This document shows, piece by piece, positions 2,698 to 14,086 of a DNA stretch of 64,000 bases (the stretch's first letter is position 1; each line of letters opens with the position of its first letter). Position numbers and translations under genes: made by a program. Under the pieces are notes generated by a model. That model made no database searches. It was not told where the DNA came from and was given only the letters and a program-made list of their open reading frames with translations. This DNA is from a virus, in the IMG/VR virus record IMGVR_UViG_3300010354_012181, positions 8,450-72,449 of that record; one strand, written 5' to 3'.

Positions 2698-3087
2698 ATG
2701 ATATATAACCTAGACGGTGTTCAGATCATGATGCTGATCTTGCTGATGTTGCAGATCAAGCATTTTCTTGCAGATTTTTGGTTGCAAACTGATCAAATGA
2801 TCAGGGATAAAGGAATCTATGGAGCCCGTAACGGGATATATCACAGTCTCATCCATGCTATTGGAACGTTTATTGCTTTTTTAATTTTAGATCCTTACAT
2901 CGCATTTACGATGTCAGTTTTGGATTTTTTAATACATTATCATATAGACTGGACCAAAAGTTTTATCAATAATAGATATGAACTTAATAGCGAAAATCCA
3001 AAATTTTGGTTTTGTTTTGGAGCGGACCAAATGGCACATCAATTAACCTACCTTTTTTTAGTCGGGTGGGTTTTTTTCGTTTTTTAA
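2698..3087 (+). CDS. DUF3307-like membrane protein
   Basis: KHFLADFWLQ, HSLIH, HYHIDW, DQMAHQ His/Asp motifs in a hydrophobic protein. Confidence 0.75.
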   Translation: MIYNLDGVQIMMLILLMLQIKHFLADFWLQTDQMIRDKGIYGARNGIYHSLIHAIGTFIAFLILDPYIAFTMSVLDFLIHYHIDWTKSFINNRYELNSENPKFWFCFGADQMAHQLTYLFLVGWVFFVF

Positions 3088-3131
3088 ATAAACAGATGCT
3101 ATAATAAACAAAAGGATAAGTAAAGCAAACG

Positions 3132-3707
3132 ATGGAGCATCGGGTGAAAAAATTAGAAGATTTCATAGCCGAAGATCGGATTGATCTCAAACTGCTTGAA
3201 AATAGCACACATTTTCTTAACGGAGAAATCGATGAAGATTCTGTAGGGGCAGCAGTAAAATGGTTGATCTACGAAAATCTCGATACTAGCAAAGAAAAGA
3301 TCTTGACTCTGTACATTAACTCTACAGGAGGCGATTTGTATCAGGCATTTGGATTGATCGATATTATGCAGGCCAGTCCTCATGTGATTAGAACTATAGG
3401 TATAGGTGCAGTAATGAGTGCTGCCTTTTTAATTTTTGCATCGGGTGATCACGGACAGAGATTAGCGGCTAAAAATACCAGTTTTATGTGTCATCAATTC
3501 AGCGAAGGTATAGATGCCAAATATCATGATATCAAGGCTACAATGAAAGAAAACGATCTGTGTAATGAAAGAATGATATTGCTGTTAAAAGAAGCCACTG
3601 GTCTTGCACCTAGTGTAATTAAAAAGAAATTACTACCAGCGTCAGATGTTTATTTGACTGCAGAAGAGGTTGTCGATCTGGGAATAGCTGACAGCATCTT
3701 GGAGTGA
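3132..3707 (+). CDS. clpP: ClpP-like serine protease (S14)
   Basis: LYINSTGG, AVMSAA (Ser), FMCHQ (His), DVYLTAEEVVDLGIAD. Confidence 0.85.
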   Translation: MEHRVKKLEDFIAEDRIDLKLLENSTHFLNGEIDEDSVGAAVKWLIYENLDTSKEKILTLYINSTGGDLYQAFGLIDIMQASPHVIRTIGIGAVMSAAFLIFASGDHGQRLAAKNTSFMCHQFSEGIDAKYHDIKATMKENDLCNERMILLLKEATGLAPSVIKKKLLPASDVYLTAEEVVDLGIADSILE

Positions 3708-3714
3708 GAACTTT

Positions 3715-3954
3715 ATGAATATAGTACCTATAGAATCGAAAGCTAAAAAAGAAGAAGAACGCAAAATAGCGATGTTAGATGTTTTAACTGTGATAAAAAA
3801 ACAAATAGAAGATGGAAAAATTAAAGAATTCGTAGCCTGTTCGCTGAACGATGAGGGAGATGCACAAATCCATGTCAGTTGTCTTGATCTTGTTGGCGGC
3901 GTAGGACTTTTCGAAGTTGGTAAACACTTACTTATTGAATTGGATCAATCGTAG
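3715..3954 (+). CDS. Hypothetical protein
   Basis: ORF in operon context. Confidence 0.7.
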   Translation: MNIVPIESKAKKEEERKIAMLDVLTVIKKQIEDGKIKEFVACSLNDEGDAQIHVSCLDLVGGVGLFEVGKHLLIELDQS

Positions 3955-3986
3955 CAAAAAAGCCACATTTATTGGCGAAAAAATTC

Positions 3987-4015
3987 TTGACAGATAAATA
4001 AACTGACAATATAAT
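3987..4015 (+). promoter_or_regulatory. sigma70-type promoter of the tRNA-array leader
   Basis: TTGACA(3987-3992)-17 nt-TATAAT(4010-4015); predicted start ~4022 coincides with an ATG. Confidence 0.88.
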
Positions 4016-4021
4016 AATACT

Positions 4022-4129
4022 ATGATGAACAAACTTCATTCAATTATATCTAGCATTAAACAGATGGCCTATACATGGTCAGTACCCTGCTTTGGTCTAG
4101 AGAATGATCGTATGAGGGGTTCCGCATAG
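4022..4129 (+). CDS. Putative attenuator leader peptide containing all 20 amino acids (MMNKLHSIISSIKQMAYTWSVPCFGLENDRMRGSA)
   Basis: Leaderless ATG at the predicted TSS; residues 12-30 are 19 different amino acids; last codons and stop overlap the antiterminator 5' arm. Confidence 0.8.
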   Translation: MMNKLHSIISSIKQMAYTWSVPCFGLENDRMRGSA

Positions 4130-4161
4130 TCTAATAAGAAACTAGATTTATACGGGACCCC
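4116..4161 (+). promoter_or_regulatory. Putative antiterminator hairpin
   Basis: GGGGTTCCGCATAGTCTA (4116-4133) pairs with TAGATTTATACGGGACCCC (4143-4161), sequestering the CCCC of the terminator. Confidence 0.75.
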
Positions 4162-4191
4162 AGGATTAAAAACCCTGGGGTTTTTGTTTTT
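4158..4191 (+). terminator. Intrinsic terminator (attenuator)
   Basis: CCCCAGG-ATTAAAAAC-CCTGGGG followed by TTTTTGTTTTT. Confidence 0.88.
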
Positions 4192-4204
4192 ATAAAGGAA
4201 AAAA

Positions 4205-4384
4205 ATGCAAACAAAAGAAATAGATTACACAAAACTGAATGAACGCATCGTTGAACAGGCTTACGATTCTGCTTTCCGTATGACAGAAGAACAGACTCGC
4301 AAACTTATTCAAGATAAGTTTGAAAGAGCCAAAGCGATGAGTGACGCCATAAAGGCCAGTCCTGTGTGGCACACTGATCGATAA
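4205..4384 (+). CDS. Small hypothetical protein (59 aa, MQTKEIDYTKLNERIVEQAY...), not in ORF track
   Basis: AAAGGA RBS just after the terminator; open frame to TAA at 4382-4384. Confidence 0.7.
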   Translation: MQTKEIDYTKLNERIVEQAYDSAFRMTEEQTRKLIQDKFERAKAMSDAIKASPVWHTDR

Positions 4385-4394
4385 TATTCAGTTA

Positions 4395-4620
4395 TAAAGT
4401 GTGAATGGGAAACGAGGTCCCGGAGCGCACTCAAAACATGCTCCAAACGGGCGGACCTGAGGATGGAGTTCTTCTTGTAGAACAAAAAATTCAGGAGTAG
4501 TAAAGCATATTGGAGATAAGCTCGGTACTGTCTGCAGACGGAACGCCTCGCCCAGTATGCTTTACTACACACTCTCCACCTCCGCCTGCACAGCGGTTGA
4601 CAGCATAGCGGGAGAGTGAT
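4395..4620 (+). ncRNA. Putative structured non-coding RNA(s) at the head of the tRNA array
   Basis: GC-rich intergenic tract; stems AGTGTG/CGCACT, GGGA/TCCC, possible GGAG/CTCC pseudoknot, 17-bp 4497-4513/4552-4568, CACTCTCC/GGAGAGTG. Confidence 0.6.
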
Positions 4621-4629
4621 AAAATTTTT

Positions 4630-4718
4630 GGATAGGTGCGCTGAATTGGTTGAAGGCAACGGACTGTAAATCCGCCACATAAGAAACATTGTAGGTTCGA
4701 ATCCTACCCTATCCACCA
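4630..4718 (+). tRNA. tRNA-Tyr(GTA)
   Basis: Cloverleaf, anticodon loop CTGTAAA, long V arm, GGTTCGAATCC, CCA end. Confidence 0.92.
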
Positions 4719-4725
4719 ATATTAT

Positions 4726-4754
4726 TTGACTTTTTTCTTTTTTGATGTTATAAT
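4726..4754 (+). promoter_or_regulatory. sigma70-type promoter (leaderless downstream gene)
   Basis: TTGACT-17 nt-TATAAT with TG; ATG 6 nt downstream. Confidence 0.7.
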
Positions 4755-4760
4755 AACAAT

Positions 4761-5528
4761 ATGAAAATAAAAATTGCTCTTAGTTCGTTTTTGCTAACAG
4801 TATGTTTATCCGGATGCGGAGCCACTCTAACAGCCAAAGATGGCACAAAAATGCCTGTGAGTGTTTCTGAGTATAGAGCATATAGAGATAAACCGGCACC
4901 AACAGTTTTAATTTCACATGGCAGCGACGGTGTTCAAAAACATCACGTAGAATGGGCTAAAGAAATACAATCTTGGGGCTTCAATGCTGTGGTGATCGAT
5001 CATTATTCCTTACGCGGAATATCAATGCACATAGGCATTGTGTTACCTAATATGAGAGGTGAACATAGGGCACGTGATATAGTGGAGGCAGGGAGATGGG
5101 CGAAATCTCAAACTTGGCATAAAGGCAAGATTTCTGTAATTGGCTTTAGTCAGGGAGGTAGCGGTGTAATGGCATTAGTAAATGGAAAAGACAGAGAGTA
5201 CAATAAAATACTGTTAAAAGGTGAGGAGATGCCAATCGATTCGGCCGTAGCATTTTATCCCGGTTGCAGTATAAGCTTTCCTCCGTTAACTCCTAGTATG
5301 CCAGTGCAGATGCATCTTGCAGGAGAAGATACTCTGGCTTTGACTAGTTATTGCGAACCATTAACAGATAAAAATTATACGGTACATAGATACAATAATG
5401 CTACTCATGCCTTTGATGTATATTTAGGATCATTTAAACCTAAATTTTATCATAGATATGATCCTAACATTACTGCCGTTGCCAAAAAAAATACCAGAGA
5501 TTTTTTAGTAAAAAACTTAAAAGAATGA
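4761..5528 (+). CDS. Dienelactone hydrolase-family alpha/beta hydrolase, lipoprotein-like signal
   Basis: LSGC lipobox; HGSDG, GFSQGG nucleophile elbow, AFYPGC, ATHAFD. Confidence 0.85.
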   Translation: MKIKIALSSFLLTVCLSGCGATLTAKDGTKMPVSVSEYRAYRDKPAPTVLISHGSDGVQKHHVEWAKEIQSWGFNAVVIDHYSLRGISMHIGIVLPNMRGEHRARDIVEAGRWAKSQTWHKGKISVIGFSQGGSGVMALVNGKDREYNKILLKGEEMPIDSAVAFYPGCSISFPPLTPSMPVQMHLAGEDTLALTSYCEPLTDKNYTVHRYNNATHAFDVYLGSFKPKFYHRYDPNITAVAKKNTRDFLVKNLKE

Positions 5529-5529
5529 T

Positions 5530-5672
5530 CATTTAGAAGTAGCACAGCTCGTGAGGCACCGATCAAGCCTAACCTTGTCCAAAGCGGAAAGCCTGTGATA
5601 CTAGTAATGTCAGCCTATAAGGTTTGACACATCAGGTAGCAAGAGGATAGTAAACTGTGTTACTCCTAAATG
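5530..5672 (+). ncRNA. Putative structured ncRNA closed by an 18-bp stem
   Basis: CATTTAGAAGTAGCACAG (5530-5547) pairs with CTGTGTTACTCCTAAATG (5655-5672); internal hairpin TGTCAGCCT/AGGTTTGACA. Confidence 0.6.
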
Positions 5673-5746
5673 GTCCCATAATATATCGGTTAGTATACTG
5701 GCCTGTCACGCCGGAAGGATGGGTTCGACTCCCATTGGGACCGCCA
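5672..5746 (+). tRNA. tRNA-Asp(GTC)
   Basis: Cloverleaf, loop CTGTCAC, CCA end. Confidence 0.92.
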
Positions 5747-5787
5747 AATTTTTTACATGACAAGTTTTTTCTGATAAGTAGATTTAC

Positions 5788-5863
5788 GCCGGTTTAGCAC
5801 AGTGGTAGTTGCAATCGCCTTGTAAGCGATAGGTCGTCAGTTCGAATCCGACAACCGGCACCA
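5788..5863 (+). tRNA. tRNA-Thr(TGT)
   Basis: ATCGC-CTTGTAA-GCGAT, CCA end. Confidence 0.92.
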
Positions 5864-5869
5864 TTTTAA

Positions 5870-5945
5870 TGTCCTGTAGATCAGTCGGTAGATCAGCGGA
5901 CTGTTAATCCGTGTGTCGGTGGTTCGAGCCCACCCAGGACAGCCA
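5870..5945 (+). tRNA. tRNA-Asn(GTT)
   Basis: GCGGA-CTGTTAA-TCCGT, CCA end. Confidence 0.92.
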
Positions 5946-5961
5946 ATTTATGGAGTGTTGT

Positions 5962-6114
5962 ATGCCGATGTATGAAACAACTGTAAGAACACCGCAAGGT
6001 GAAGAAAAGAAACGTGTTTACGCGAAAGACGTAAAAGAAGCAAAACAACTTTTCGAACAACTTTACGGTGGTCCTAGAGCAGTTCCTTATATACCGCACA
6101 TAGTACCAAGTTAA
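5962..6114 (+). CDS. Small hypothetical protein (50 aa) inside the tRNA array
   Basis: GGAG RBS at ~5952; MPMYETTVRTPQGEEKKRVY... Confidence 0.65.
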   Translation: MPMYETTVRTPQGEEKKRVYAKDVKEAKQLFEQLYGGPRAVPYIPHIVPS

Positions 6115-6116
6115 TT

Positions 6117-6190
6117 GGGGGATTAGTTAAATGGGATAACATCGGCTTTGCAAGCCGAGATTAACAGTTCGATTCTGTTATCCTCCACCA
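6117..6190 (+). tRNA. tRNA-Ala(TGC)
   Basis: TCGGC-TTTGCAA-GCCGA; G3:U70 identity pair; CCA. Confidence 0.92.
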
Positions 6191-6205
6191 AGTTGTAAAT
6201 TTTTT

Positions 6206-6284
6206 CCGGGTGTAGCTTAGTCTGGCTTAAAGCGCCTGCTTTGGGAGCAGGAGATCGTGAGTTCGAATCCCACTTCCCGGACCA
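6206..6284 (+). tRNA. tRNA-Pro(TGG)
   Basis: CCTGC-TTTGGGA-GCAGG; some stem mismatches; CCA. Confidence 0.88.
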
Positions 6285-6289
6285 ATTTT

Positions 6290-6364
6290 GCATCGTTAGT
6301 TCAGCGGTAGAACGTCGCCCTTACAAGGCGAATGTCAGTGGTTCGACTCCATTACGATGCACCA
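6290..6364 (+). tRNA. tRNA-Val(TAC)
   Basis: TCGCC-CTTACAA-GGCGA; CCA. Confidence 0.92.
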
Positions 6365-6371
6365 TATAAAT

Positions 6372-6447
6372 ATCTCGCTAGTGTTTAACGGCAGCACGTC
6401 GGTCTCCAAAACCGAAAGACGGGGTTCAAATCCCTGGCGAGGTGCCA
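6372..6447 (+). tRNA. tRNA-Trp(CCA)
   Basis: TCGGT-CTCCAAA-ACCGA; CCA. Confidence 0.9.
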
Positions 6448-6453
6448 AAATTT

Positions 6454-6528
6454 GCTCGGTTCGTCTATCGGTTAGGACACCGCCCTTTCACGGCGGGAAG
6501 AGGGGTTCGATTCCCCTACCGAGTACCA
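6454..6528 (+). tRNA. tRNA-Glu(TTC)
   Basis: CCGCC-CTTTCAC-GGCGG; CCA. Confidence 0.92.
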
Positions 6529-6533
6529 AATAT

Positions 6534-6607
6534 GCGGGATTAGTTTATTGGTAAAACAGAACCTTGCCAAGGTCCAGTGACCAGTTCGATTCTGGTATCC
6601 CGCTCCA
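6534..6607 (+). tRNA. tRNA-Gly(GCC)
   Basis: Loop TTGCCAA; GCGGGAT/ATCCCGC, U73, CCA. Confidence 0.9.
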
Positions 6608-6614
6608 AGTTTTT

Positions 6615-6714
6615 GCCTCTGTAGCTTAATCGGTAAAGAAGCGAGCTTATACCTCGCCAAAGCACCGGCCAGATAAGCCGGCGTGTGCAGGTTCGAGTCC
6701 TGCCAGAGGCACCA
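6615..6714 (+). tRNA. tRNA-Ile(TAT) with long variable arm
   Basis: GCGAG-CTTATAC-CTCGC; V arm with CCGGC/GCCGG stem; CCA. Confidence 0.8.
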
Positions 6715-6768
6715 ATATCATTATAAATTTAGTACAATTTATTTTAGGGTAAGTATTAGATATAAAAT

Positions 6769-6846
6769 GTGTCGGTGGCAGAGAGGCCCAATGCAAGAGT
6801 CTGCAAAACTCTAAAACCGTGAGTTCGAATCTCACCCGGCACTCCA
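6769..6846 (+). tRNA. tRNA-Cys(GCA)
   Basis: AGAGT-CTGCAAA-ACTCT; U73; CCA. Confidence 0.9.
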
Positions 6847-6851
6847 ATATT

Positions 6852-7397
6852 ATGAAACAATTTAATTATAATCATCTTAATAATTTTATAGCAGGTTGGT
6901 ATATTGACAATAATATTTGTGATGCTATAGTTTCTAAAGGAGAAGATAATTTATTATTATTTTCTGCAGGAATAAAAGAATATACAAACTGCGATTTAAA
7001 AAATTTTGACGTTATATTAAATGATTTATATTCTAACCAACTCACTAAAGTGTTGGAAGAATACAAAAAAATATATCCTTACTGCTTTAAAAATTTGAAT
7101 ACTTGGAAATTTACTCCGCCTCGAATTCAGAGATACGATCCAGGAAAATCATACAGTGAAATTCATTGTGAAAATAACGGACAGACCTTGTATCAAACCA
7201 GGCACTTAGTTTACATGACGTATCTTAATGATATTACAAATGGTGGAGGTACTGAATTCCCCTATCAAAATTTAACTACTCCTCCAGAAAAAGGTTTAAC
7301 CTTAGTTTGGCCGGCGGGTTGGACACATCAACATCGTGGTATAGTTAGCAATAAAGAAACAAAGTATATAATTACTGGTTGGTGCTGTTTTGATTAA
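6852..7397 (+). CDS. 2OG-Fe(II) oxygenase (prolyl 4-hydroxylase-like)
   Basis: IQRY..H.E, YMTYLND, GGGTEF, WPAGWTHQHRG, KYIITGW; ATG at 6852 after tRNA-Cys. Confidence 0.88.
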   Translation: MKQFNYNHLNNFIAGWYIDNNICDAIVSKGEDNLLLFSAGIKEYTNCDLKNFDVILNDLYSNQLTKVLEEYKKIYPYCFKNLNTWKFTPPRIQRYDPGKSYSEIHCENNGQTLYQTRHLVYMTYLNDITNGGGTEFPYQNLTTPPEKGLTLVWPAGWTHQHRGIVSNKETKYIITGWCCFD

Positions 7398-7410
7398 ATC
7401 AATAATTTAG

Positions 7411-7492
7411 GCCCCTGTGGCGCAAAATACCGGGAAGACGCGACTGTTCAAGAGACAGTAATGTGCGGGTTCGAATCCCGTCAGGGGCACCA
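7411..7492 (+). tRNA. Atypical tRNA, Leu-like (AAG by position), short variable loop
   Basis: GCCCCTG/CAGGGGC-A-CCA; ACTGT-TCAAGAG-ACAGT with C33; normal T arm. Confidence 0.65.
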
Positions 7493-7498
7493 GTTTAC

Positions 7499-7586
7499 GG
7501 AAGTGTGGTCGAGTGGTCTATGGCACTGGTCTTGAAAACCAGCGATCTGAAAGGGTCCGTGAGTTCGAATCTCACCGCTTCCGCCA
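7499..7586 (+). tRNA. tRNA-Ser(TGA)
   Basis: CTGGT-CTTGAAA-ACCAG; long V arm; G73; CCA. Confidence 0.92.
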
Positions 7587-7595
7587 TTTTAGGAG

Positions 7596-7799
7596 ATGAA
7601 TATGGAAGTTAACTCAGTGACTTATTACGGTTGGAGAGATAATCTACAAACCGTAGAAAAACGCATCACCTATGATTATTCTAATGGTAATGATGTAACT
7701 GTAGTCGAACGTAGATCTTATCTTATAACTCTTTATGACGGAAGAGGTAATGTAGATGTGTCTCAGAGCAAAGGTAACAATATTGATCAAATGGCCTGA
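7596..7799 (+). CDS. Small hypothetical protein
   Basis: AGGAG RBS; stop overlaps the 5' end of tRNA-Ile. Confidence 0.65.
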   Translation: MNMEVNSVTYYGWRDNLQTVEKRITYDYSNGNDVTVVERRSYLITLYDGRGNVDVSQSKGNNIDQMA

Positions 7800-7868
7800 T
7801 TAGCTCAGTGGTAGAGCATCGTCTTGATAAGGCGAGGGTCCGTGGATCGTTCCCACGATCAGGCACCA
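7794..7868 (+). tRNA. tRNA-Ile(GAT)
   Basis: TCGTC-TTGATAA-GGCGA; variant T loop ATCGTTC; CCA. Confidence 0.85.
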
Positions 7869-7870
7869 AT

Positions 7871-7946
7871 GGGACGTTAGCTCAGTTGGTAGAGCAGCGG
7901 ACTTTTAATCCGTTGGTCACTGGTTCGAATCCAGTACGTCCTACCA
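7871..7946 (+). tRNA. tRNA-Lys(TTT)
   Basis: GCGGA-CTTTTAA-TCCGT; CCA. Confidence 0.93.
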
Positions 7947-7951
7947 TATTT

Positions 7952-8027
7952 GGTAACGTAGCATAGCGGCTAATGCGGCACCTTCATACGGTGTTTATCG
8001 TGAGTTCGAGTCTCACCGTTACTACCA
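7952..8027 (+). tRNA. tRNA-Met(CAT) elongator (or Ile2)
   Basis: GCACC-TTCATAC-GGTGT; CCA. Confidence 0.85.
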
Positions 8028-8033
8028 AACAAT

Positions 8034-8109
8034 TGGGGATTCGCCAAGTTGGTAAGGCATCGGATTTTGATTCCGACATTCGGTGGTTCGAGTCCATCAT
8101 CCCCAGCCA
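8034..8109 (+). tRNA. tRNA-Gln(TTG)
   Basis: TCGGA-TTTTGAT-TCCGA; U1:A72, G73; CCA. Confidence 0.92.
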
Positions 8110-8110
8110 A

Positions 8111-8187
8111 CGGTCCTTAACTCAATGGATTAGAGTGCCAGTCTTCGAAACTGGAGGTTGGGGGTTCGAGTCCCTCAGGGCCGGCCA
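8111..8187 (+). tRNA. tRNA-Arg(TCG)
   Basis: CCAGT-CTTCGAA-ACTGG; CCA. Confidence 0.9.
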
Positions 8188-8193
8188 TACAAT

Positions 8194-8267
8194 GGTGTTG
8201 TTAGTGTAGTGGTAACACGACTGTCTGTGAAACAGTAAACCAGGGTTCGATTCCCGACTTCACCCCA
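8194..8267 (+). tRNA. tRNA-His(GTG)
   Basis: ACTGT-CTGTGAA-ACAGT; G-1:C73; two U-U mismatches in acceptor stem. Confidence 0.8.
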
Positions 8268-8271
8268 GTTA

Positions 8272-8344
8272 CCCGCTTTAGCTGATGTGGTCATAGCAAC
8301 GGTTTGAAGAACCGTGGAACGTGGTTCGATCCCACGAGGCGGGA
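8272..8344 (+). tRNA. tRNA-Phe(GAA), CCA not fully encoded
   Basis: ACGGT-TTGAAGA-ACCGT; CCCGCTT/AGGCGGG. Confidence 0.85.
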
Positions 8345-8346
8345 CA

Positions 8347-9258
8347 TTAATTTATAAATTCTAGTCCTTTGAAATAATGTTGTCGATTAACCAATAATTC
8401 TAAAGGCTGCGTGTATTTTTTAACATAACCTATTACTATTTCTAAAGGCATATTTTTTGGGGAAAGATTAAAATTTTTACACCATGTTTCAAACTTCATT
8501 GAGGAATATAACTTTTTTCTATTCTCATTAGTGTCAAACACAAAACCACCATGAGAACCAAATCTACCAGTGCAATCTATTTCCGTAGGATCATCGTTTT
8601 CATAAAATGATTGTAATGGTGGTTTACCAAGAATAGATCTATTTAAGAGAACAAGATTTTTTTGATTATAATTAAAAAATTTATAATTAGAAAGCAAGTC
8701 TTCTGAATTAAAGGTTAACCAATTATCCCAAGTTATGGGCCTGATCTCAAATGATGTTATAGGATAAAACGTATTGGTGAATATTTTATTTTCCGTTAAA
8801 TTTGCCACGTGTTCAAGACTGTGAACATTATTATTTAGATTTTCTATTGATTTTATGAAATCTTGTTTATCATAATCATTAATAATGTTAAAATTGCAAT
8901 CAAACGGATTTGGTAAATTATGATAGGGATCTGAATCGATCCAAATCATGTTTTTTGTAAAAAATCTATGAATAAAATTAAGAGTCGATTGTTGAAAATC
9001 AAATGTAGGCGATAACTGAAATGGGATTTTAAATCCTTTATTTTCAAGGTTAATTAAACTCTTTAGAATTTCATTCCAGCAGGATTCAACATCTATATGA
9101 TCTCGATAAGAGTGCGGGTGATAGCACCAATACTCATTTCTCATTGTGTATGTTTCTTTTTTAGAAGAAAAAAAATCAAACCATTTTTGAATTAAAGATT
9201 CATCGAATAATTCAATAAGAACATAATTAGATTTTTGAAAAGTTAATAAAAGACGCAT
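8347..9258 (-). CDS. Hypothetical protein (AT-rich insertion in the tRNA array)
   Basis: 303-aa ORF on the opposite strand, preceded by TATAAATA (minus strand, 9263-9270). Confidence 0.75.
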   Translation of the reverse strand: MRLLLTFQKSNYVLIELFDESLIQKWFDFFSSKKETYTMRNEYWCYHPHSYRDHIDVESCWNEILKSLINLENKGFKIPFQLSPTFDFQQSTLNFIHRFFTKNMIWIDSDPYHNLPNPFDCNFNIINDYDKQDFIKSIENLNNNVHSLEHVANLTENKIFTNTFYPITSFEIRPITWDNWLTFNSEDLLSNYKFFNYNQKNLVLLNRSILGKPPLQSFYENDDPTEIDCTGRFGSHGGFVFDTNENRKKLYSSMKFETWCKNFNLSPKNMPLEIVIGYVKKYTQPLELLVNRQHYFKGLEFIN

Positions 9259-9279
9259 AAAATATTTATAGGAGTAATT

Positions 9280-9474
9280 ATGAGACCAATCACTTTAAAA
9301 AATCGATTGAACAACGATCGTTTTATCTGCGACGATATAAAAATCACTGAAATTATAGATGGTGTAGAATATCTTTTGGTTAAACGATTAGGTGAAAATA
9401 GAAAATTTTTGATGCGTAAAGAGGCATTAGAAAAGGTTGACACAGCGGAAAAAAAATCTTATAATAAGAAATGA
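9280..9474 (+). CDS. Small hypothetical protein
   Basis: AGGAG RBS. Confidence 0.7.
   Translation: MRPITLKNRLNNDRFICDDIKITEIIDGVEYLLVKRLGENRKFLMRKEALEKVDTAEKKSYNKK
9437..9465 (+). promoter_or_regulatory. sigma70-type promoter for the two tRNA-Leu genes
   Basis: TTGACA(9437)-17 nt-TATAAT(9460). Confidence 0.8.
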
Positions 9475-9480
9475 TAGCAA

Positions 9481-9563
9481 GCCCCGATGGTGGAATGGTA
9501 GACACGCTGGTCTTAGAAGCCAGTGCCTAGTGCGTGAGAGTTCGAGTCTCTCTTGGGGCACCA
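9481..9563 (+). tRNA. tRNA-Leu(TAG)
   Basis: CTGGT-CTTAGAA-GCCAG; long V arm; CCA. Confidence 0.93.
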
Positions 9564-9568
9564 AATAT

Positions 9569-9653
9569 GCGACTGTGGTGAAATCGGTAGACACAAGAGA
9601 CTTAAAATCTCTCGCTTTCGGGCGTGCCAGTTCGATTCTGGCCAGTCGCACCA
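9569..9653 (+). tRNA. tRNA-Leu(TAA)
   Basis: AGAGA-CTTAAAA-TCTCT; long V arm; CCA. Confidence 0.93.
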
Positions 9654-9671
9654 TTATTGTAAATATTTGTT

Positions 9672-10154
9672 ATGAACAATTATTTAAATTATATTGATAC
9701 ACCCTCCCTGCCTGAATCGATAATCCAGGAGGTTTATAAAAGTACACAAAATCCAAATATTTTTTACGTTCAAAAAAGTCAGAATGAATATGGATTATAT
9801 GAAGCTACAGACTTATTAAAAGAGTATACTCATAAAATTTTCTCATTTCAACATAAAACAAGAGTACAAAAAATATATAAAGACCTTTTCATTCATAAGG
9901 ACTTTGAAAGGGGTTTAGCCTACAACTATCTGATAGATCTAGGTGGAGATAATGTAGAAACTTGTTTTTTTGATAATGATTTTAAATTAGTTGAAACCCA
10001 TGTGATTAAAAAACACGCATGGCATACTCTAGACGTAACAGTTTTTCATAGTGTAAAAAATGTTACTCACCCAAGATTGGCCATAACTCTTTTTCCTATC
10101 GACAGTAAAGTAAATTATTTTAAATTAGCAGATCAAAATTGGTGTAAAGAATAG
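9672..10154 (+). CDS. Cupin/2OG-Fe(II) oxygenase-like protein
   Basis: HKD...FHSV...PRLAITL double-stranded beta-helix pattern. Confidence 0.6.
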   Translation: MNNYLNYIDTPSLPESIIQEVYKSTQNPNIFYVQKSQNEYGLYEATDLLKEYTHKIFSFQHKTRVQKIYKDLFIHKDFERGLAYNYLIDLGGDNVETCFFDNDFKLVETHVIKKHAWHTLDVTVFHSVKNVTHPRLAITLFPIDSKVNYFKLADQNWCKE

Positions 10155-10198
10155 ATGTGTGTTCTATAAATTATTTGTATTAGGTTATAACTAAAAAT

Positions 10199-10822
10199 AT
10201 GTTGACTAACTTAGATAAGATTAAGTTCATTGGTGACCTTAGCCTCCAAGATGCTGACATATTGGCTAAGTTTGGACGTCAATCAAAATCTATTATCGAA
10301 TTTGGTTCAGGTGGTAGCACACAGATTTTTTCTCAGTGCGGATGTAATTCTGTAACTAGCATTGAAACTGATCCTAATTGGATAAATCTAACAAAAAAAA
10401 GACTAAGTCAATTGAATGAAGCGTCTGTTGTAGAATTTTTTTCCTATACCCACTTAGACAAAATTATTTTTGGAAAACAATATGATCTTATTTTTGTAGA
10501 TGGTGTAGATCATCTCCGCAGAGAATTTGCAATTACCACGTGGAAGTATCTACAGGTAGGAGGGGTGATGATATTTCACGACACGAGACGTTTTAATGAT
10601 TTTCAAAATGTTGCTTGGATAGCACAATTATACTTTAACGAAATAAATCGAATAGATATAAATCTTGCAGCCAGCGATGGGATCAGTAGTAATATGACCG
10701 TCATCCACAAAAAAAGTTACGAGCCTTACCAAAACTGGAACCATACTGAAAACAAACCTCTTTGGGCTTATGGTTCACAGCCCAATACTGAGGATATTCC
10801 ATTATGGAGTCAGAACAGTTAA
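10199..10822 (+). CDS. Class I SAM-dependent methyltransferase
   Basis: IIEFGSGGST, YDLIFVDG, GGVMIFHD. Confidence 0.85.
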   Translation: MLTNLDKIKFIGDLSLQDADILAKFGRQSKSIIEFGSGGSTQIFSQCGCNSVTSIETDPNWINLTKKRLSQLNEASVVEFFSYTHLDKIIFGKQYDLIFVDGVDHLRREFAITTWKYLQVGGVMIFHDTRRFNDFQNVAWIAQLYFNEINRIDINLAASDGISSNMTVIHKKSYEPYQNWNHTENKPLWAYGSQPNTEDIPLWSQNS

Positions 10823-10828
10823 GTTTAT

Positions 10829-10918
10829 GGAGAGTTGGCCGAGTGGCTGAAGGCAGCGGCTTGCTAAGCCGTCCACGGGTTAAACCGTGCATAGGTTCGA
10901 ATCCTATACTCTCCGCCA
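10829..10918 (+). tRNA. tRNA-Ser(GCT)
   Basis: GCGGC-TTGCTAA-GCCGT; long V arm; CCA. Confidence 0.93.
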
Positions 10919-10940
10919 AATTTTTAAAAAGGAAACATAT

Positions 10941-11117
10941 ATGTTGAAATCCGGATCGAATTATAAAATGACGAAACAATCAAAGCGTCTTTTAGCCACT
11001 AAGAAAATGATAGATGCTCATTATAGGGGAGAAATCAAAAGAACTGTAATTCAGGCGGAACTGGCCGCGGCAATCCAACCAAAAAGAGAAAAAGGTAAAA
11101 GAGAATCTTTGGAATAA
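10941..11117 (+). CDS. Small basic hypothetical protein
   Basis: AAGGA RBS, ATG at 10941. Confidence 0.65.
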   Translation: MLKSGSNYKMTKQSKRLLATKKMIDAHYRGEIKRTVIQAELAAAIQPKREKGKRESLE

Positions 11118-11132
11118 CATAACCAAAATGTC

Positions 11133-11160
11133 TTGACACTGACATAAAATAGTGTATAAT
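11133..11160 (+). promoter_or_regulatory. sigma70-type promoter
   Basis: TTGACA-16 nt-TATAAT. Confidence 0.7.
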
Positions 11161-11167
11161 AGTTTTT

Positions 11168-11428
11168 GTTCGGTAGCAATACTGAACCGGTGAAGTGAAA
11201 GGTAGATGAGGGTAGACGCTTGTATGGCTGAATGCCGTACATCCAATTCTGGCAAAGACTCTTGAAAAGTCTCCGTGCTTGGGTGAACCGATTCTTATAT
11301 ACCTGTCAATTGCTGATCGGAAATATTCAGGCCCCTGTAGCCTGTCTATTGCACGTTGTCAAGGATTAACTTTTAGTAAATCCGTTTGTCAATTGTCCGG
11401 TCTATTACTTGACCTTTCGCCGACCCGT
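11168..11428 (+). ncRNA. Putative ~260-nt structured ncRNA
   Basis: 5' GCAA-tetraloop hairpin; closing stem GTGAAAGGT/ACCTTTCGC; internal hairpins; repeated TGTC(A/T)ATTG motifs; no credible ORF. Confidence 0.65.
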
Positions 11429-11437
11429 TAGTATAAT
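11409..11437 (+). promoter_or_regulatory. Possible sigma70 promoter
   Basis: TTGACC-17 nt-TATAAT upstream of the 11457 ORF. Confidence 0.55.
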
Positions 11438-11456
11438 ATAAAAAAGAGAGACACAA

Positions 11457-12029
11457 ATGAATATCACACTTCGCAAAGCAAACGCCATCCAGAACAGTAT
11501 CAACGATGCAGTAAAGAATATCAAAGTTGAGTTAAATGTAGAACTCAACGAGTTCCAAAATGTTGAAGAAACAATCAGTCAGGCCAACAATGCGTTGATT
11601 GAGGCAGACGGCCGTCGTCAGAAGTTAACCATGGCTCTGTACAATATTCGAGCCCTTGTCGGAACTGCTAATTCTTCTAGCGGTATAGATACTGCTTTGG
11701 CTAAAGCAGCATTCGTAGACAAACGTATCGGTCAATTAGAAGAATTATCTCACGCCAAGGAAATGACCGGCCTAGATGTAATTAAAGGAAAACTAGAAAA
11801 AATAAAAAGTCTTAAGGACGAGGCTAGGAGTAGAGTATTTGGTTATGGTGATACCGTCACAACTTCTGTTCTTAGCAAAGAACAGATTTCACAGGCTAAA
11901 ACAGAAGTTCTTAACCTTAAAAAACAAAAACAAAAACTTAACGATGAGATTCTGGAGTTGAATATTAAAACTGAAATTCCCCTCAGCGATGATGTAGTTA
12001 AAACATTACAGTCTGAAGGGTTATTGTAA
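11457..12029 (+). CDS. Coiled-coil protein, possibly DIP1984-like
   Basis: All-helical heptad pattern; C-terminal LKKQKQKLNDEILELNIKTEI resembles that family (from memory, unverified). Confidence 0.6.
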   Translation: MNITLRKANAIQNSINDAVKNIKVELNVELNEFQNVEETISQANNALIEADGRRQKLTMALYNIRALVGTANSSSGIDTALAKAAFVDKRIGQLEELSHAKEMTGLDVIKGKLEKIKSLKDEARSRVFGYGDTVTTSVLSKEQISQAKTEVLNLKKQKQKLNDEILELNIKTEIPLSDDVVKTLQSEGLL

Positions 12030-12036
12030 AATCTAT

Positions 12037-12110
12037 CGCGGGATAGAGAAATGGTATCTCGAGAGTCTCATAAGCTCTAGTTCCTGGTTCAATTCCGGGT
12101 CCCGCAACCA
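12037..12110 (+). tRNA. tRNA-Met(CAT), initiator-like
   Basis: C1:A72 mismatch, CGCGGG 5' end, loop CTCATAA; lacks the full 3 G:C anticodon-stem run. Confidence 0.85.
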
Positions 12111-12112
12111 TT

Positions 12113-12352
12113 TATTGATAGTAGTATAAGATCCGATTCGGAAACCGAAAGGTAAAACTTAGCGGGTGGAACTGCGAGGTAGATGTATCGTAGATACATT
12201 TCGATTCTCATATATGATCCAGGGCGTTTTACAGCGTGACCAGATTGAGGGATACGGATTCCATGTTAGGCTGGACTATAGAAGCAGGTGCTGTAATGCC
12301 TGGGCGGCCCCGGGTTTCGTCCCAAACCAAAACTTCAATATTACTATCAATA
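12113..12352 (+). ncRNA. Putative ~240-nt structured ncRNA closed by a 15-bp stem
   Basis: TATTGATAGTAGTAT/ATATTACTATCAATA; internal ACC-GAAA-GGT, AGATGTATC/GATACATTT, CCAGGGCG..TTACAGC/GCTGTAATGCCTGG. Confidence 0.6.
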
Positions 12353-12371
12353 TTCTTATAAGTAGAATTAT

Positions 12372-12445
12372 GCGGGGTTCGTATAGTGGTAATACCTCAG
12401 CCTTCCAAGCTGATGCGGAGAGTTCGATTCTCTTACCCCGCTCCA
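12372..12445 (+). tRNA. tRNA-Gly(TCC)
   Basis: TCAGC-CTTCCAA-GCTGA; U73; CCA. Confidence 0.93.
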
Positions 12446-12451
12446 AATAAA

Positions 12452-13027
12452 ATGCAAGTAATTGATCAAAACAAAACCTTTCGTAAGTTTGATTTTAGTT
12501 CTGTAATTACCGCAGATGATAATAGATCAGCAATAGGTATAATCAAAGACATCATCGCAGACGGAAATTATTTTACTAACAGTCCTAAGTTTCAAACTAA
12601 AGAAAACATATTTTCTCGACCTGAACCTGTCTGGCTCAAGTATCGAATGAGTTTTTTATTTTCTGTGTTCTTATACCTGGGTCGCGAAGTCAAGGTCAGT
12701 AATATGATGGCCTGGTCATTTATGACTAATCTCGAAGGTGCCGAGGACCGTGAAAAATTATGGCATCATCATTGGCATCCTAGTCGTCCAGAATCTAAAC
12801 TTCTCAGCGGTATATGGTATCTGCATATACCCGAAGATGTAAAAGATCGAGATTACTGTGGTACTGAAATGGCTCCAAATGGTATAGATGCTGATGGAAA
12901 ATTTTTTGTTCGTCCCTCAGATAACAATTGGTTAATTTATCCTAGCGATCAATGGCATAGGCCCGGAATCGTTCAAAGTGATCAGTATCGATTTATATTG
13001 GCCGCAGATGTAGAATATTACGATTGA
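12452..13027 (+). CDS. Putative 2OG-Fe(II) oxygenase-like protein
   Basis: WHHHWH, LSGIWYL, LIYPSDQWH, RFILA; ATG right after tRNA-Gly. Confidence 0.65.
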   Translation: MQVIDQNKTFRKFDFSSVITADDNRSAIGIIKDIIADGNYFTNSPKFQTKENIFSRPEPVWLKYRMSFLFSVFLYLGREVKVSNMMAWSFMTNLEGAEDREKLWHHHWHPSRPESKLLSGIWYLHIPEDVKDRDYCGTEMAPNGIDADGKFFVRPSDNNWLIYPSDQWHRPGIVQSDQYRFILAADVEYYD

Positions 13028-13065
13028 AAATAATAATTTAAATCCGCAGGCCTGGAGATTTAGTA

Positions 13066-13467
13066 ATGCAATTTGCTGTTCAAACTCGTAGCAAACAAAA
13101 CAAAGAATTTATCGAACGGATCCTTCCATCAATGATAACGCAGTTAGGTTTGCAACACAGTAAAAAATTATTGTTTGTTAGAATAGTCAAAGACATTGAT
13201 GACAATGACGGTTGCACTAGTCATATCGTCAATCTCGGTACTATTGTAATTTTACTTAAACCTCAGAGCCTAGAAAGATTGGGAGTTACTCTCGCTCATG
13301 AAATGGTTCATGTTAAACAACTAGCCAAAGGTAAACTTAAAACTATTAAAGGTATAAGTTATTGGAACGGTAAAAGATACAGCAAACGAACAAAGTATCT
13401 CGATCAACCCTGGGAAATAGAAGCATTTAGTAAACAAGAATTAATTTTTAGACGCTCTATAGAGTAG
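13066..13467 (+). CDS. Zinc metallopeptidase (HExxH)
   Basis: TLAHEMVHVKQ ... PWEIEA. Confidence 0.8.
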   Translation: MQFAVQTRSKQNKEFIERILPSMITQLGLQHSKKLLFVRIVKDIDDNDGCTSHIVNLGTIVILLKPQSLERLGVTLAHEMVHVKQLAKGKLKTIKGISYWNGKRYSKRTKYLDQPWEIEAFSKQELIFRRSIE

Positions 13468-13480
13468 AAAGGAGGGCAAG

Positions 13481-14086
13481 ATGCCTAGTGTATTTTTAGT
13501 TAGCGACACGCACTTTGGTCACGCAGGTGTCTGCCGCTTCACACGCAACGATGGTGTGACAAAACTGCGTCCGTGGGATGATCCTGCGGAGATGGACGAA
13601 GATATGATCAAGGCCTGGAACGAACGTGTCCGACCCACTGATAAGGTATACCATTTAGGTGATGTTGTTATTAATCGGAAAGCCATGTCTACATTATCAC
13701 GTTTGAATGGGGACAAGGTCTTGATACGTGGTAATCACGACATCTTCCGTGATGACGAGTATAGGCAGTTCTTTAGAGAATTGCGAGCATACCACGTTAT
13801 GAACGGAATGATCTTAAGCCATATTCCTGTACACAGTGACAGCTTAGGTCGTTTTGGTACAAACATTCACGGCCACTTACACGCAAACCGTGTTAAGAAG
13901 CCTCGCGGTGTTGATGCTCGTACAGGAGAAATCTTGTACAGCGATGAAAACGATGTTCGCTACCATTGCGTTTGCGTAGAACAAACACCAGACTTTGCTC
14001 CAATATTATTTGAAGACGTTATCAAACGCATCGAAGAAGAAGGCGGAAGTATTGGATTTAGAAACGGAAACGGCGCAATCATGTAG
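13481..14086 (+). CDS. Calcineurin-like metallophosphoesterase
   Basis: SDTHFGH, HLGD, GNHD, SH, HGHLH motifs. Confidence 0.9.
   Translation: MPSVFLVSDTHFGHAGVCRFTRNDGVTKLRPWDDPAEMDEDMIKAWNERVRPTDKVYHLGDVVINRKAMSTLSRLNGDKVLIRGNHDIFRDDEYRQFFRELRAYHVMNGMILSHIPVHSDSLGRFGTNIHGHLHANRVKKPRGVDARTGEILYSDENDVRYHCVCVEQTPDFAPILFEDVIKRIEEEGGSIGFRNGNGAIM

Follow-up and report, generated by a model that had tools for sequence, protein, structure and literature searches.

Ribosome stalling at hungry codons leads to transcriptional read-through in the attenuators of amino-acid operons, including trpL, hisL, leuL, pheL and the multivalent thrL and ilvL. T-box elements, which contain no open reading frame (ORF), bind one uncharged tRNA and possess a Stem I specifier and the T-box sequence. 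In mycobacteria, leaderless short ORFs encoding polycysteine reportedly act as Cys-responsive attenuators at the 5′ ends of operons. Here, we analyse a candidate attenuator at positions 3987–4191 of a 64,000-nucleotide stretch of viral DNA (IMG/VR record IMGVR_UViG_3300010354_012181, positions 8,450 to 72,449; the whole stretch is referred to as the window). The element consists of a consensus promoter, a 35-codon leader ORF containing all 20 amino acids and two putative, mutually exclusive RNA hairpins, and lies upstream of an array of tRNA genes.

Broad sensing of translation stress by a short ORF has been described for the upstream ORF (uORF) attenuator of whiB7 in mycobacteria, the composition of which sets the amino-acid shortages that are sensed (PMC10274678; statements on whiB7 refer to the accessible part of this paper). 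The M. smegmatis uORF contains every amino acid but Cys, and the uORF varies by species, the M. tuberculosis version being Ala-rich and without several amino acids (PMC10274678). Deletion of the single Trp codon led to significantly less induction on Trp starvation, and deletion of three His codons abolished the response to His starvation (PMC10274678). The effect of the single Trp codon indicates that, in this system as reported there, one codon can sense. Control of a tRNA array by stress is known from Anabaena sp. PCC 7120, in which the trn operon, a supernumerary array, is normally silent and is induced when translation is impaired; control is exerted by the repressor TrcR, which binds direct repeats over the −10 element and the start site (PMC8421152 and PMC10272220, in their accessible parts). 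The terms attenuat-, leader and terminator have 0 occurrences in the accessible text of PMC8421152. In the openly accessible literature (subscription journals were outside the scope), we found no leader-peptide attenuator described for tRNA genes.

It has long been asked why phages encode tRNAs and what use they make of them. An earlier reading of the letters alone (the original prediction) had proposed that the present element senses the whole pool of charged tRNAs and had named no described example; the concept does have a precedent, the whiB7 uORF being a known broad translation-stress attenuator (PMC10274678, accessible part). From comparative sequence analysis, we consider it likely that the element is a ribosome-mediated transcription attenuator, which would serve as a demand sensor and exert negative feedback on the phage tRNA supply.

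Results

Amino-acid coverage of the leader ORF

The leader ORF begins 6 nt after the −10 hexamer of a promoter that matches the sigma-70-type consensus at 12/12 positions (Table 1), and the predicted start of transcription falls at or adjoins the A of its ATG at 4022. With this spacing the leader mRNA of the window is probably leaderless. Residues 12–30 of the encoded peptide are 19 distinct residues in succession and His is at position 6; the promoter with its start on the ATG, the 35-codon ORF and this run of residues had all been read correctly in the original prediction. All 20 amino acids are reached within 31 codons that lie wholly 5′ of the antiterminator arm, and 23/24 decoding classes are represented, the missing class being the Leu TTR codon. 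Among 35-residue windows taken from the 51 long ORFs of the window, 5/14,596 contain 20/20 amino acids (0.0019 under an independent, identically distributed model), all-distinct 19-residue windows number 0/15,412 and all-distinct runs in these ORFs reach 16 residues at most. Of the ATG ORFs of 30–55 aa in the six frames of the window (n = 134), only the leader has 20/20. The chance of 20!/20^19 given originally for the run of 19 is arithmetically correct (4.6e-7 under a uniform model), but one case in 64 kb is suggestive and not decisive. The run itself is not kept, the all-distinct runs of relatives comprising 7–16 residues; coverage is the conserved property.

Homologous leaders were gathered in two sets. 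In the first, viral contigs were searched with two flanking proteins, which gave 47 loci and, with the window, 37 distinct leaders of 35–51 residues; 20/20 amino acids are present in 35/37 of these and 19/20 in the other two. The second set was drawn independently of the flanking proteins, through a downstream structured-RNA motif (at least 120 loci), and its leaders were identified by an automatic finder that used hairpin, U-tract and ORF geometry only, with its own stop-to-U-tract criterion of 40–65 nt. Among the matches listed, to which the counts for the second and merged sets refer, the upstream sequence was too short in 11 loci, no hit was obtained in 9 and 100 yielded a leader (88 distinct, 9 of them already seen). 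The 79 new peptides contain 20/20 amino acids in 47 cases, 19/20 in 18, 18/20 in 8, 17/20 in 3 and 16 or fewer in 3. When the sets are merged, 82/116 distinct leaders have 20/20 amino acids and 102/116 have at least 19/20, so that near-complete coverage is retained in divergent peptides, as had been anticipated for relatives. As controls, other small ORFs in the same loci have 20/20 in 52/3,833 cases and 47-residue windows of real proteins in 115/13,984.

An intact ATG-to-stop ORF of 25–67 codons that ends 40–59 nt 5′ of the U-tract is present in 100/109 loci with enough upstream sequence, again among the matches listed; with looser criteria a leader is found in 4/9 of the misses (L102, L146, L133 and L103) and none in L096, L105, L115, L150 and L165. 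Single-linkage clustering at 70% identity gives 63 clusters, 39 of which have a member with 20/20, and at 40% identity or more there is one cluster. Wherever the flanking sequence is long enough, the leader stands at the head of a tRNA array: an array follows the attenuator in 22/24 loci scanned, the other two ending about 350–530 nt past a gene for a 59-aa protein, and in 7/7 further loci.

The leaderless layout is found in 32/105 distinct relatives (window included). A 5′ untranslated region of 40–59 nt, which starts with a sequence-variable yet pairing hairpin followed by a Shine–Dalgarno-like AAGGA, is seen in 55/105 leaders (L003, L004, L009 and other type-A leaders). A tandem second strong promoter, homologous to the promoter of the window (TTGACA..ATAAATAAAC..TATAAT), is located about 60–90 nt 5′ of the leader promoter in L038, L040, L041, L043, L045 and L046. 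Three candidates from the generic scan were judged to be false or doubtful, namely L075 at 4454 (promoter 9/12, weak antiterminator), L088 at 9282 (promoter 9/12, overlapping a tRNA) and L142, and the candidate leader L029 at 926 is doubtful (promoter 8/12).

Selection for the presence of each amino acid

In the 37 first-set leaders, Cys occurs at 1.03 copies per peptide (minimum 1, maximum 2) and is spread over 13 alignment columns, His at 1.11 copies over 10 columns and Tyr at 1.16 copies over 11 columns; Trp and Asp are mostly found in one column each, and an NDR motif is present. Shuffling of residues within columns leaves a mean of 5.4/37 peptides complete, with a maximum of 14 in 5,000 shuffles, compared with the 35 observed. 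The pattern is the one expected from selection for at least one of each amino acid and not the one expected from plain descent. This selection concerns presence rather than position, lost rare residues being replaced elsewhere in the peptide. The 24 decoding classes (split Ser, Arg and Leu boxes; ATA versus ATY) are all covered by 30/37 leaders and by 6/13,984 47-codon windows of genes. The full set of 20 amino acids is already encoded wholly upstream of the antiterminator arm in 34/37 leaders.

The alphabet of the leader follows the tRNA genes of its own block

Composition of the leader and of the array that it precedes can be compared directly in loci with at least nine tRNAs sampled. Of the 34 cases in which a leader lacks an amino acid, 26 show the same gap in the sampled array; such shared gaps number 15.1 ± 2.4 under a null that preserves both margins, and 0/4,000 randomisations reach 26. 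In the window, a 20/20 leader precedes an array covering all 20 amino acids. Fuller sequence was used for five records, and split arrays were seen in two of them, G005 and G003.

In G005, the first leader, MKKEMLSMLFVTLSPVASTTLGSENPGSDATMTRVMKL, precedes tRNAs N, S, E, D, T, L, G, P, A, M and V, and 28/31 of its residues belong to the amino-acid set of this block. The second, MIKMFKQIRKHQMFCIRWYRLPGEGLSVGASYA, precedes 13 tRNAs, for Y, I, W, R, C, Q, M, K, H and F, and its 20 codons 5′ of the arm encode these 10 amino acids and no others (19/19 after Met-1, binomial P 6e-9). The 93% complete genome G003 also has two leaders. Leader A, MKLAYEHKFMIRSIEKCREYRYGVSEGSAV, is followed by tRNAs C, M, E, Y, F, K, I, H, R and L, with 19/23 residues in the set, and leader B, MNLTSASSLVWTNGLQNPGNDLCSEGYGNG, by tRNAs N, W, S, A, V, D, G, T, L, Q and P, with 21/22 residues in the set. 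In 4/4 leaders of these two genomes every amino acid of the downstream block is present upstream of the arm. Glu, Gln and Trp are assigned to blocks differently in G005 and G003, and the leaders differ correspondingly. The same block-matched pattern is seen in L103 and, in part, in L087. The comparison shows that in split arrays the alphabet of each leader follows the tRNAs of its own block, which goes beyond what had been proposed for the locus.

The predicted antiterminator/terminator switch and its conservation

The 5′ strand of the antiterminator hairpin contains the last four sense codons and the stop codon (4127–4129), and its 3′ strand overlaps the 5′ strand of the terminator by 4–7 nt (4155/4158–4161). 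Both the pairing of the last codons and stop with 4143–4161 and the mutual exclusion with a terminator at 4158–4191 had been proposed before; folding gives the former as an outer and an inner stem (Table 1), and the shared nucleotides account for the latter. The nascent-RNA fold of 4082–4166 with the antiterminator has −25.4 kcal/mol. The terminator core, CCCCAGG/CCTGGGG at 4158–4164/4174–4180 (−16.4 kcal/mol), is followed by TTTTTGTTTTT. A consensus terminator scan did not list this terminator because its loop has 9 nt and the scan allows a maximum of 8. The distance from the stop codon to the U-tract is 51 nt. In constrained folds of the nascent RNA (to 4172), the full antiterminator forms in the absence of a ribosome or with a ribosome at codon 12, and it cannot form when a ribosome is placed at the stop codon. 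A small hairpin within the coding region is a possible pause or timing hairpin for RNA polymerase. An Rfam cmscan of 3000–13500 at E ≤ 1 gave no match in 3987–4191, T-box and leader families included, and elsewhere only tRNAs and chance-level matches.

The nascent RNA of 37/37 first-set leaders adopts a common tiered hairpin that encloses the stop codon. Together with the ORF, this placement of the stop codon in the antiterminator and the overlap with a terminator are maintained in the 116 distinct homologues, among the matches listed. Pair counts were taken from 32 type-A rows, an alignment of all 37 with MAFFT having misaligned the subgroup of the window; the five leaders outside these counts (the window, L025, L037, L039 and L047) were folded singly and all five show the same two hairpins. 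Across the 32 sequences, the outer antiterminator stem is paired in 224/224 cells, 3/7 of its pairs are compensated and 0/500 shuffles match this, while the terminator stem is paired in 98.4% of cells. Covarying stems, which the original prediction had named as a check, are thus seen in the antiterminator. The shared column 82 forms AU 17, GC 13 and GU 2 with column 10 in the antiterminator, and UG 18, CG 13 and UA 1 with column 98 in the terminator: the covarying partner preserves the pairing of the antiterminator and the terminator absorbs the change by wobble. The distance from stop to U-tract is 49–57 nt in 37/37 first-set leaders, though the ORF varies in length from 108 to 156 nt, and 45–59 nt in 104/105 leaders of the generic scan.

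Genes and RNAs behind the candidate attenuator

The window is part of a 72-kb viral contig with a CheckV completeness of 21%. This low value points to a giant-phage origin, and related contigs are up to 330–357 kb long. For the 869-aa structural protein, the best matches in cultured phages are T4-like cyanophages only, at 45% identity or less. Neither blastn of 3900–4400 nor tblastn of a 528-aa protein found a match in the cultured-phage collection, which leaves the locus without an annotated close relative for support.

The proposed read-through into a tRNA array is right in that such an array follows, and its 24 ARAGORN genes cover all 20 amino acids as claimed; the immediate cargo is a conserved 59-aa ORF and a conserved structured RNA, not tRNAs (Table 1). 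No lead for the 59-aa protein was obtained from Pfam, PHROG or Atlas. Its gene is optional, being absent in L039 and L047/L048, where the structured RNA directly follows the terminator. The structured-RNA motif is present in at least 120 viral contigs and the region is kept in all loci inspected. At E ≤ 1 there is no Rfam match in 4395–4620; helices are visible by eye, and RNAalifold on 92 copies gave no usable consensus, the alignment being too gappy. The structured RNA is part of the attenuator-gated transcript, and its 3′ end would be set by RNase P cleavage at tRNA-Tyr.

A second promoter, termed the bypass promoter here, occupies the loop of the final structured-RNA hairpin and is flanked by a 9-bp inverted repeat (CACTCTCC / GGGAGAGTG). 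Promoters of this type occur at the homologous place in L018, L032, L034, L037, L039, L040, L043, L045 and L047. In the interval between attenuator and first tRNA of 35 distinct loci, 22 have no consensus-like promoter, 10 (including the window) have a bypass-type promoter and 3 have a weaker downstream site; in the 22/35 promoter-free loci the last hairpin of the structured RNA is short. The bypass promoter looks like an insertion that circumvents the attenuator. Since 22/35 loci lack an intervening promoter, the attenuator stands alone at the head of the array in most relatives.

Table 1. Features of the attenuator locus in the window (positions count from the first nucleotide of the window)
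Feature	Position	Strand	Description
Sigma-70-type promoter	3987..4015	+	TTGACA-17-TATAAT, 12/12; −35 3987–3992, −10 4010–4015
Leader ORF	4022..4129	+	35 codons + TAG, MMNKLHSIISSIKQMAYTWSVPCFGLENDRMRGSA; 20/20 amino acids
Small hairpin within coding region	4065..4081	+	UGGCC/GGUCA, in minimum-free-energy folds
Antiterminator hairpin	4116..4161	+	Outer stem 4116–4124/4153–4161, inner stem 4126–4133/4143–4151 (fold of 4100–4195)
Intrinsic terminator	4155..4191	+	Stem 4155–4164/4174–4183, loop 9 nt, U-tract 4181–4191
Conserved 59-aa protein gene	4205..4384	+	First gene 3′ of the attenuator
Conserved structured RNA	about 4395..4620	+	About 200–230 nt, always between attenuator (or 59-aa gene) and first tRNA
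Bypass promoter	4597..4625	+	TTGACA-17-TAAAAT with TG, 11/12; 5 nt 5′ of tRNA-Tyr
tRNA array	4630..12445	+	24 ARAGORN tRNA genes + 2 Rfam-only; all 20 amino acids; first is tRNA-Tyr (4630)
Rfam-only tRNA genes	6615–6711 (97 nt, long) and 7411–7489		58.3 and 44.3 bits; missed by default ARAGORN

Genes for tRNA-Tyr often escape ARAGORN at its default threshold. Such genes lie directly after the structured RNA in L171 (G003:289119-289200), L002, L004, L013 and L033, and one of them was found at a relaxed ARAGORN threshold (35 bits with Rfam); automatic counts of loci with no tRNA-Tyr are therefore artefactual. The array of the window is interspersed with a dienelactone-hydrolase-like gene, a 2OG-Fe(II) oxygenase and a methyltransferase, and a ClpP-family protease gene (3132–3707; Pfam CLP_protease, E 1.2e-30) is located two genes 5′ of the leader. 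Permuted, two-piece tmRNA genes with tags of 24–28 residues were found about 2 kb 5′ of the leader in L009 (43–441), L018 (896–1312) and L032 (627–1058); none was found in the window.

Discussion

The sequence-level predictions of the attenuator interpretation that could be tested were all borne out, namely a conserved ORF, its amino-acid coverage, a covarying switch, the array context and block-matched alphabets. We infer the direction of the switch, the translation of the ORF and the physiological trigger. In the proposed mechanism, host RNA polymerase would start at the consensus promoter, giving a transcript that begins at the AUG, and a ribosome would translate 35 codons that comprise every amino acid. 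When decoding is fast, the ribosome at the stop codon would cover roughly 4112–4141 and keep 4116–4124 single-stranded; with this segment held open, 4155–4164 would pair with 4174–4183 and transcription would end in the U-tract. When an aminoacyl-tRNA is scarce, the ribosome would be delayed at an earlier codon, the antiterminator would form first and block the terminator, and the polymerase would continue through the 59-aa gene and the structured RNA and on into the tRNA array. The added phage tRNA would then relieve the stall, closing a negative-feedback loop. Possible triggers include loss of host tRNA, anticodon nucleases, a mismatch in codon usage and starvation.

The split arrays suggest a more general form of this mechanism. 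Taken together, the leaders and their blocks probably constitute a modular, self-tuning tRNA homeostat, in which each block would be transcribed on demand, the leader would gauge this demand codon by codon and the alphabet of the leader would co-evolve with the tRNA genes of the block. The window would then represent the extreme form, with a leaderless ORF of 35 codons sampling 20 amino acids before a complete array.

A number of observations weigh against this interpretation. At the level of composition, 34/116 leaders, among the matches listed, lack at least one amino acid, and all leaders belong to one family, so that the counts are not independent events. For 8/34 leader gaps the matching tRNA is present in the sampled array, and in the complete genome G002 the leader is without Phe, yet tRNA-Phe is encoded in the array 9 kb downstream. 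Matching of codons to anticodons, that is of isoacceptors, is not significant (P of codon given tRNA 0.73 versus 0.66; permutation p 0.09 for arrays with at least 12 tRNAs and 0.26 for those with at least 18). There are no tandem or clustered regulatory codons in the leader, each amino acid occurring about once or a few times.

The geometry and energetics of the switch raise further difficulties. The last-placed amino acids are encoded 6–11 nt before the arm in most leaders; all 20 are found at least 9 nt upstream of it in 26/37 leaders and at least 12 nt upstream in 5/37. If the ribosome is assumed to cover +12 nt, a ribosome at Asp-29 blocks the outer stem in the window, and the codons for Asp (4106) and Arg (4109, 4115) are close to the stem; in this model Asp and Arg may not be sensed. 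The original claim that a stall at any codon is sensed thus holds for coverage (20/20) and would fail for these two residues under that footprint. The proposed fold check with a constrained 5′ arm is borne out by the nascent RNA, in which a ribosome at the stop prevents the antiterminator, and not by the full-length equilibrium fold, which prefers the terminator with or without a modelled ribosome, so that the outcome of the switch hinges on kinetics.

Two further points concern transcription. Promoters are present within the array at 4726 (11/12), 9437 (12/12) and 11133 (12/12), as had been noted before, and also at 6904 and 11409 (11/12 each). Together with the site at 4597, a strong promoter before the first tRNA that the original prediction had not listed, they mean that in the window the attenuator cannot be the sole control and only adds to transcription of the array. 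Support for transcription from RNA libraries is weak: these runs provide contigs only, from which starts, ends and levels are not readable. A 163-nt contig from the RNA-filed run X1 is identical to the window at 4082–4244 and bridges the terminator, although carry-over of DNA is possible, and the short contigs of runs X8 and X16 on 4155–4190 derive from relatives.

Several other explanations of the element have to be weighed against these findings. The ORF might control the switch but report general translation capacity (ribosomes, initiation, elongation factors or antibiotics), or act through Rho or mRNA decay. The geometry allows this, any slowing of the ribosome giving the same read-through, and the lack of significant codon-to-anticodon matching fits it, as does the reaction of the whiB7 uORF to many translation stresses (PMC10274678, accessible part). 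However, selection that keeps each amino acid present while Cys, His and Tyr move, and block-matched leaders would be unexpected for a sensor of general capacity, and the canonical conserved hairpin and U-tract with an overlapping, covarying antiterminator speak against Rho or decay; we regard this explanation as unlikely. A switch of reversed polarity, in which translation of the leader favours read-through by a coupled ribosome, as in pyrBI, and stalling terminates, draws on nothing specific beyond the fact that the direction of the switch is deduced. It is very improbable in view of the position of the stop codon, which precedes the terminator stem by about 25 nt and the U-tract by 49–57 nt, so that a ribosome on the ORF cannot cover the terminator, and which is inside the antiterminator in 37/37 leaders, a structure that the ribosome must melt.

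The remaining explanations make the peptide composition incidental or inherited. If the switch were set in trans, by a protein or, as in a T-box, by an uncharged tRNA, then a conserved and covarying antiterminator/terminator would be expected just as for a riboswitch-like element; yet no Rfam family, T-box included, matches 3987–4191 at E ≤ 1, and the ORF is present in 100/109 loci, plus 4 of the other 9 by looser criteria, with its composition under selection. We give this explanation hardly any credence. Least plausible of all is an ordinary small-protein gene with its own terminator and a composition of all 20 residues inherited by descent. Parts of the peptide are indeed conserved (Trp in one column and the NDR motif), and there is one leader family. 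Against this, the rare residues move at about one copy each and the column shuffle destroys coverage, the C-terminal residues encoded by the stem add no needed amino acid in 34/37 leaders, split arrays have split alphabets and the mutually exclusive hairpins covary.

If the attenuator interpretation is correct, the supply of phage tRNA would be regulated on demand and not merely added, and shortage of particular charged tRNAs would be the selective problem for the phage, possibly arising from host shut-off, tRNA-cleaving defences or codon mismatch. The phage could then answer the loss of any host tRNA, for example through anticodon nucleases or decay late in infection, without a constitutive cost. 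The element comprises 200 nt with a consensus sigma-70 promoter and would be expected to function in laboratory hosts, which makes the question directly testable, and this compact natural design could report decoding speed for any chosen set of codons.

Comparison with known systems

The element resembles the attenuators of amino-acid operons in its promoter-proximal short ORF, in an antiterminator whose 5′ strand would here be covered once a ribosome arrives at the stop codon, and in the overlapping terminator. Unlike these attenuators, the phage leader has no runs and devotes roughly one codon to each of the 20 amino acids, its cargo is tRNA genes and not biosynthetic enzymes, and the form in the window is leaderless; no obvious strong 1:2 anti-antiterminator was seen in it and it matches no Rfam leader family. 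With T-box elements it shares a terminator/antiterminator switch, the predicted role of reporting tRNA charging and a translation-related cargo; it differs in having an ORF, and a Stem I specifier and T-box sequence were not found in it, judging by the Rfam search. The mycobacterial polycysteine ORFs are said to be leaderless attenuators, like that of the window, but to sense one amino acid through a run of Cys.

Like whiB7, the phage leader combines a diverse uORF with an intrinsic terminator and an antiterminator; in whiB7, as far as the accessible part of the report goes, complete coverage is not kept, the cargo is a transcription factor, the system belongs to the host and not to a phage and there is no link to a tRNA set (PMC10274678). 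The trn array of Anabaena is a stress-induced tRNA array as in the model proposed here for the phage, but it is controlled by a protein repressor and not by an attenuator (PMC8421152 and PMC10272220, in their accessible parts). The phage element would thus extend attenuation from one or a few amino acids and biosynthetic genes to all amino acids and the genes of the tRNAs themselves.

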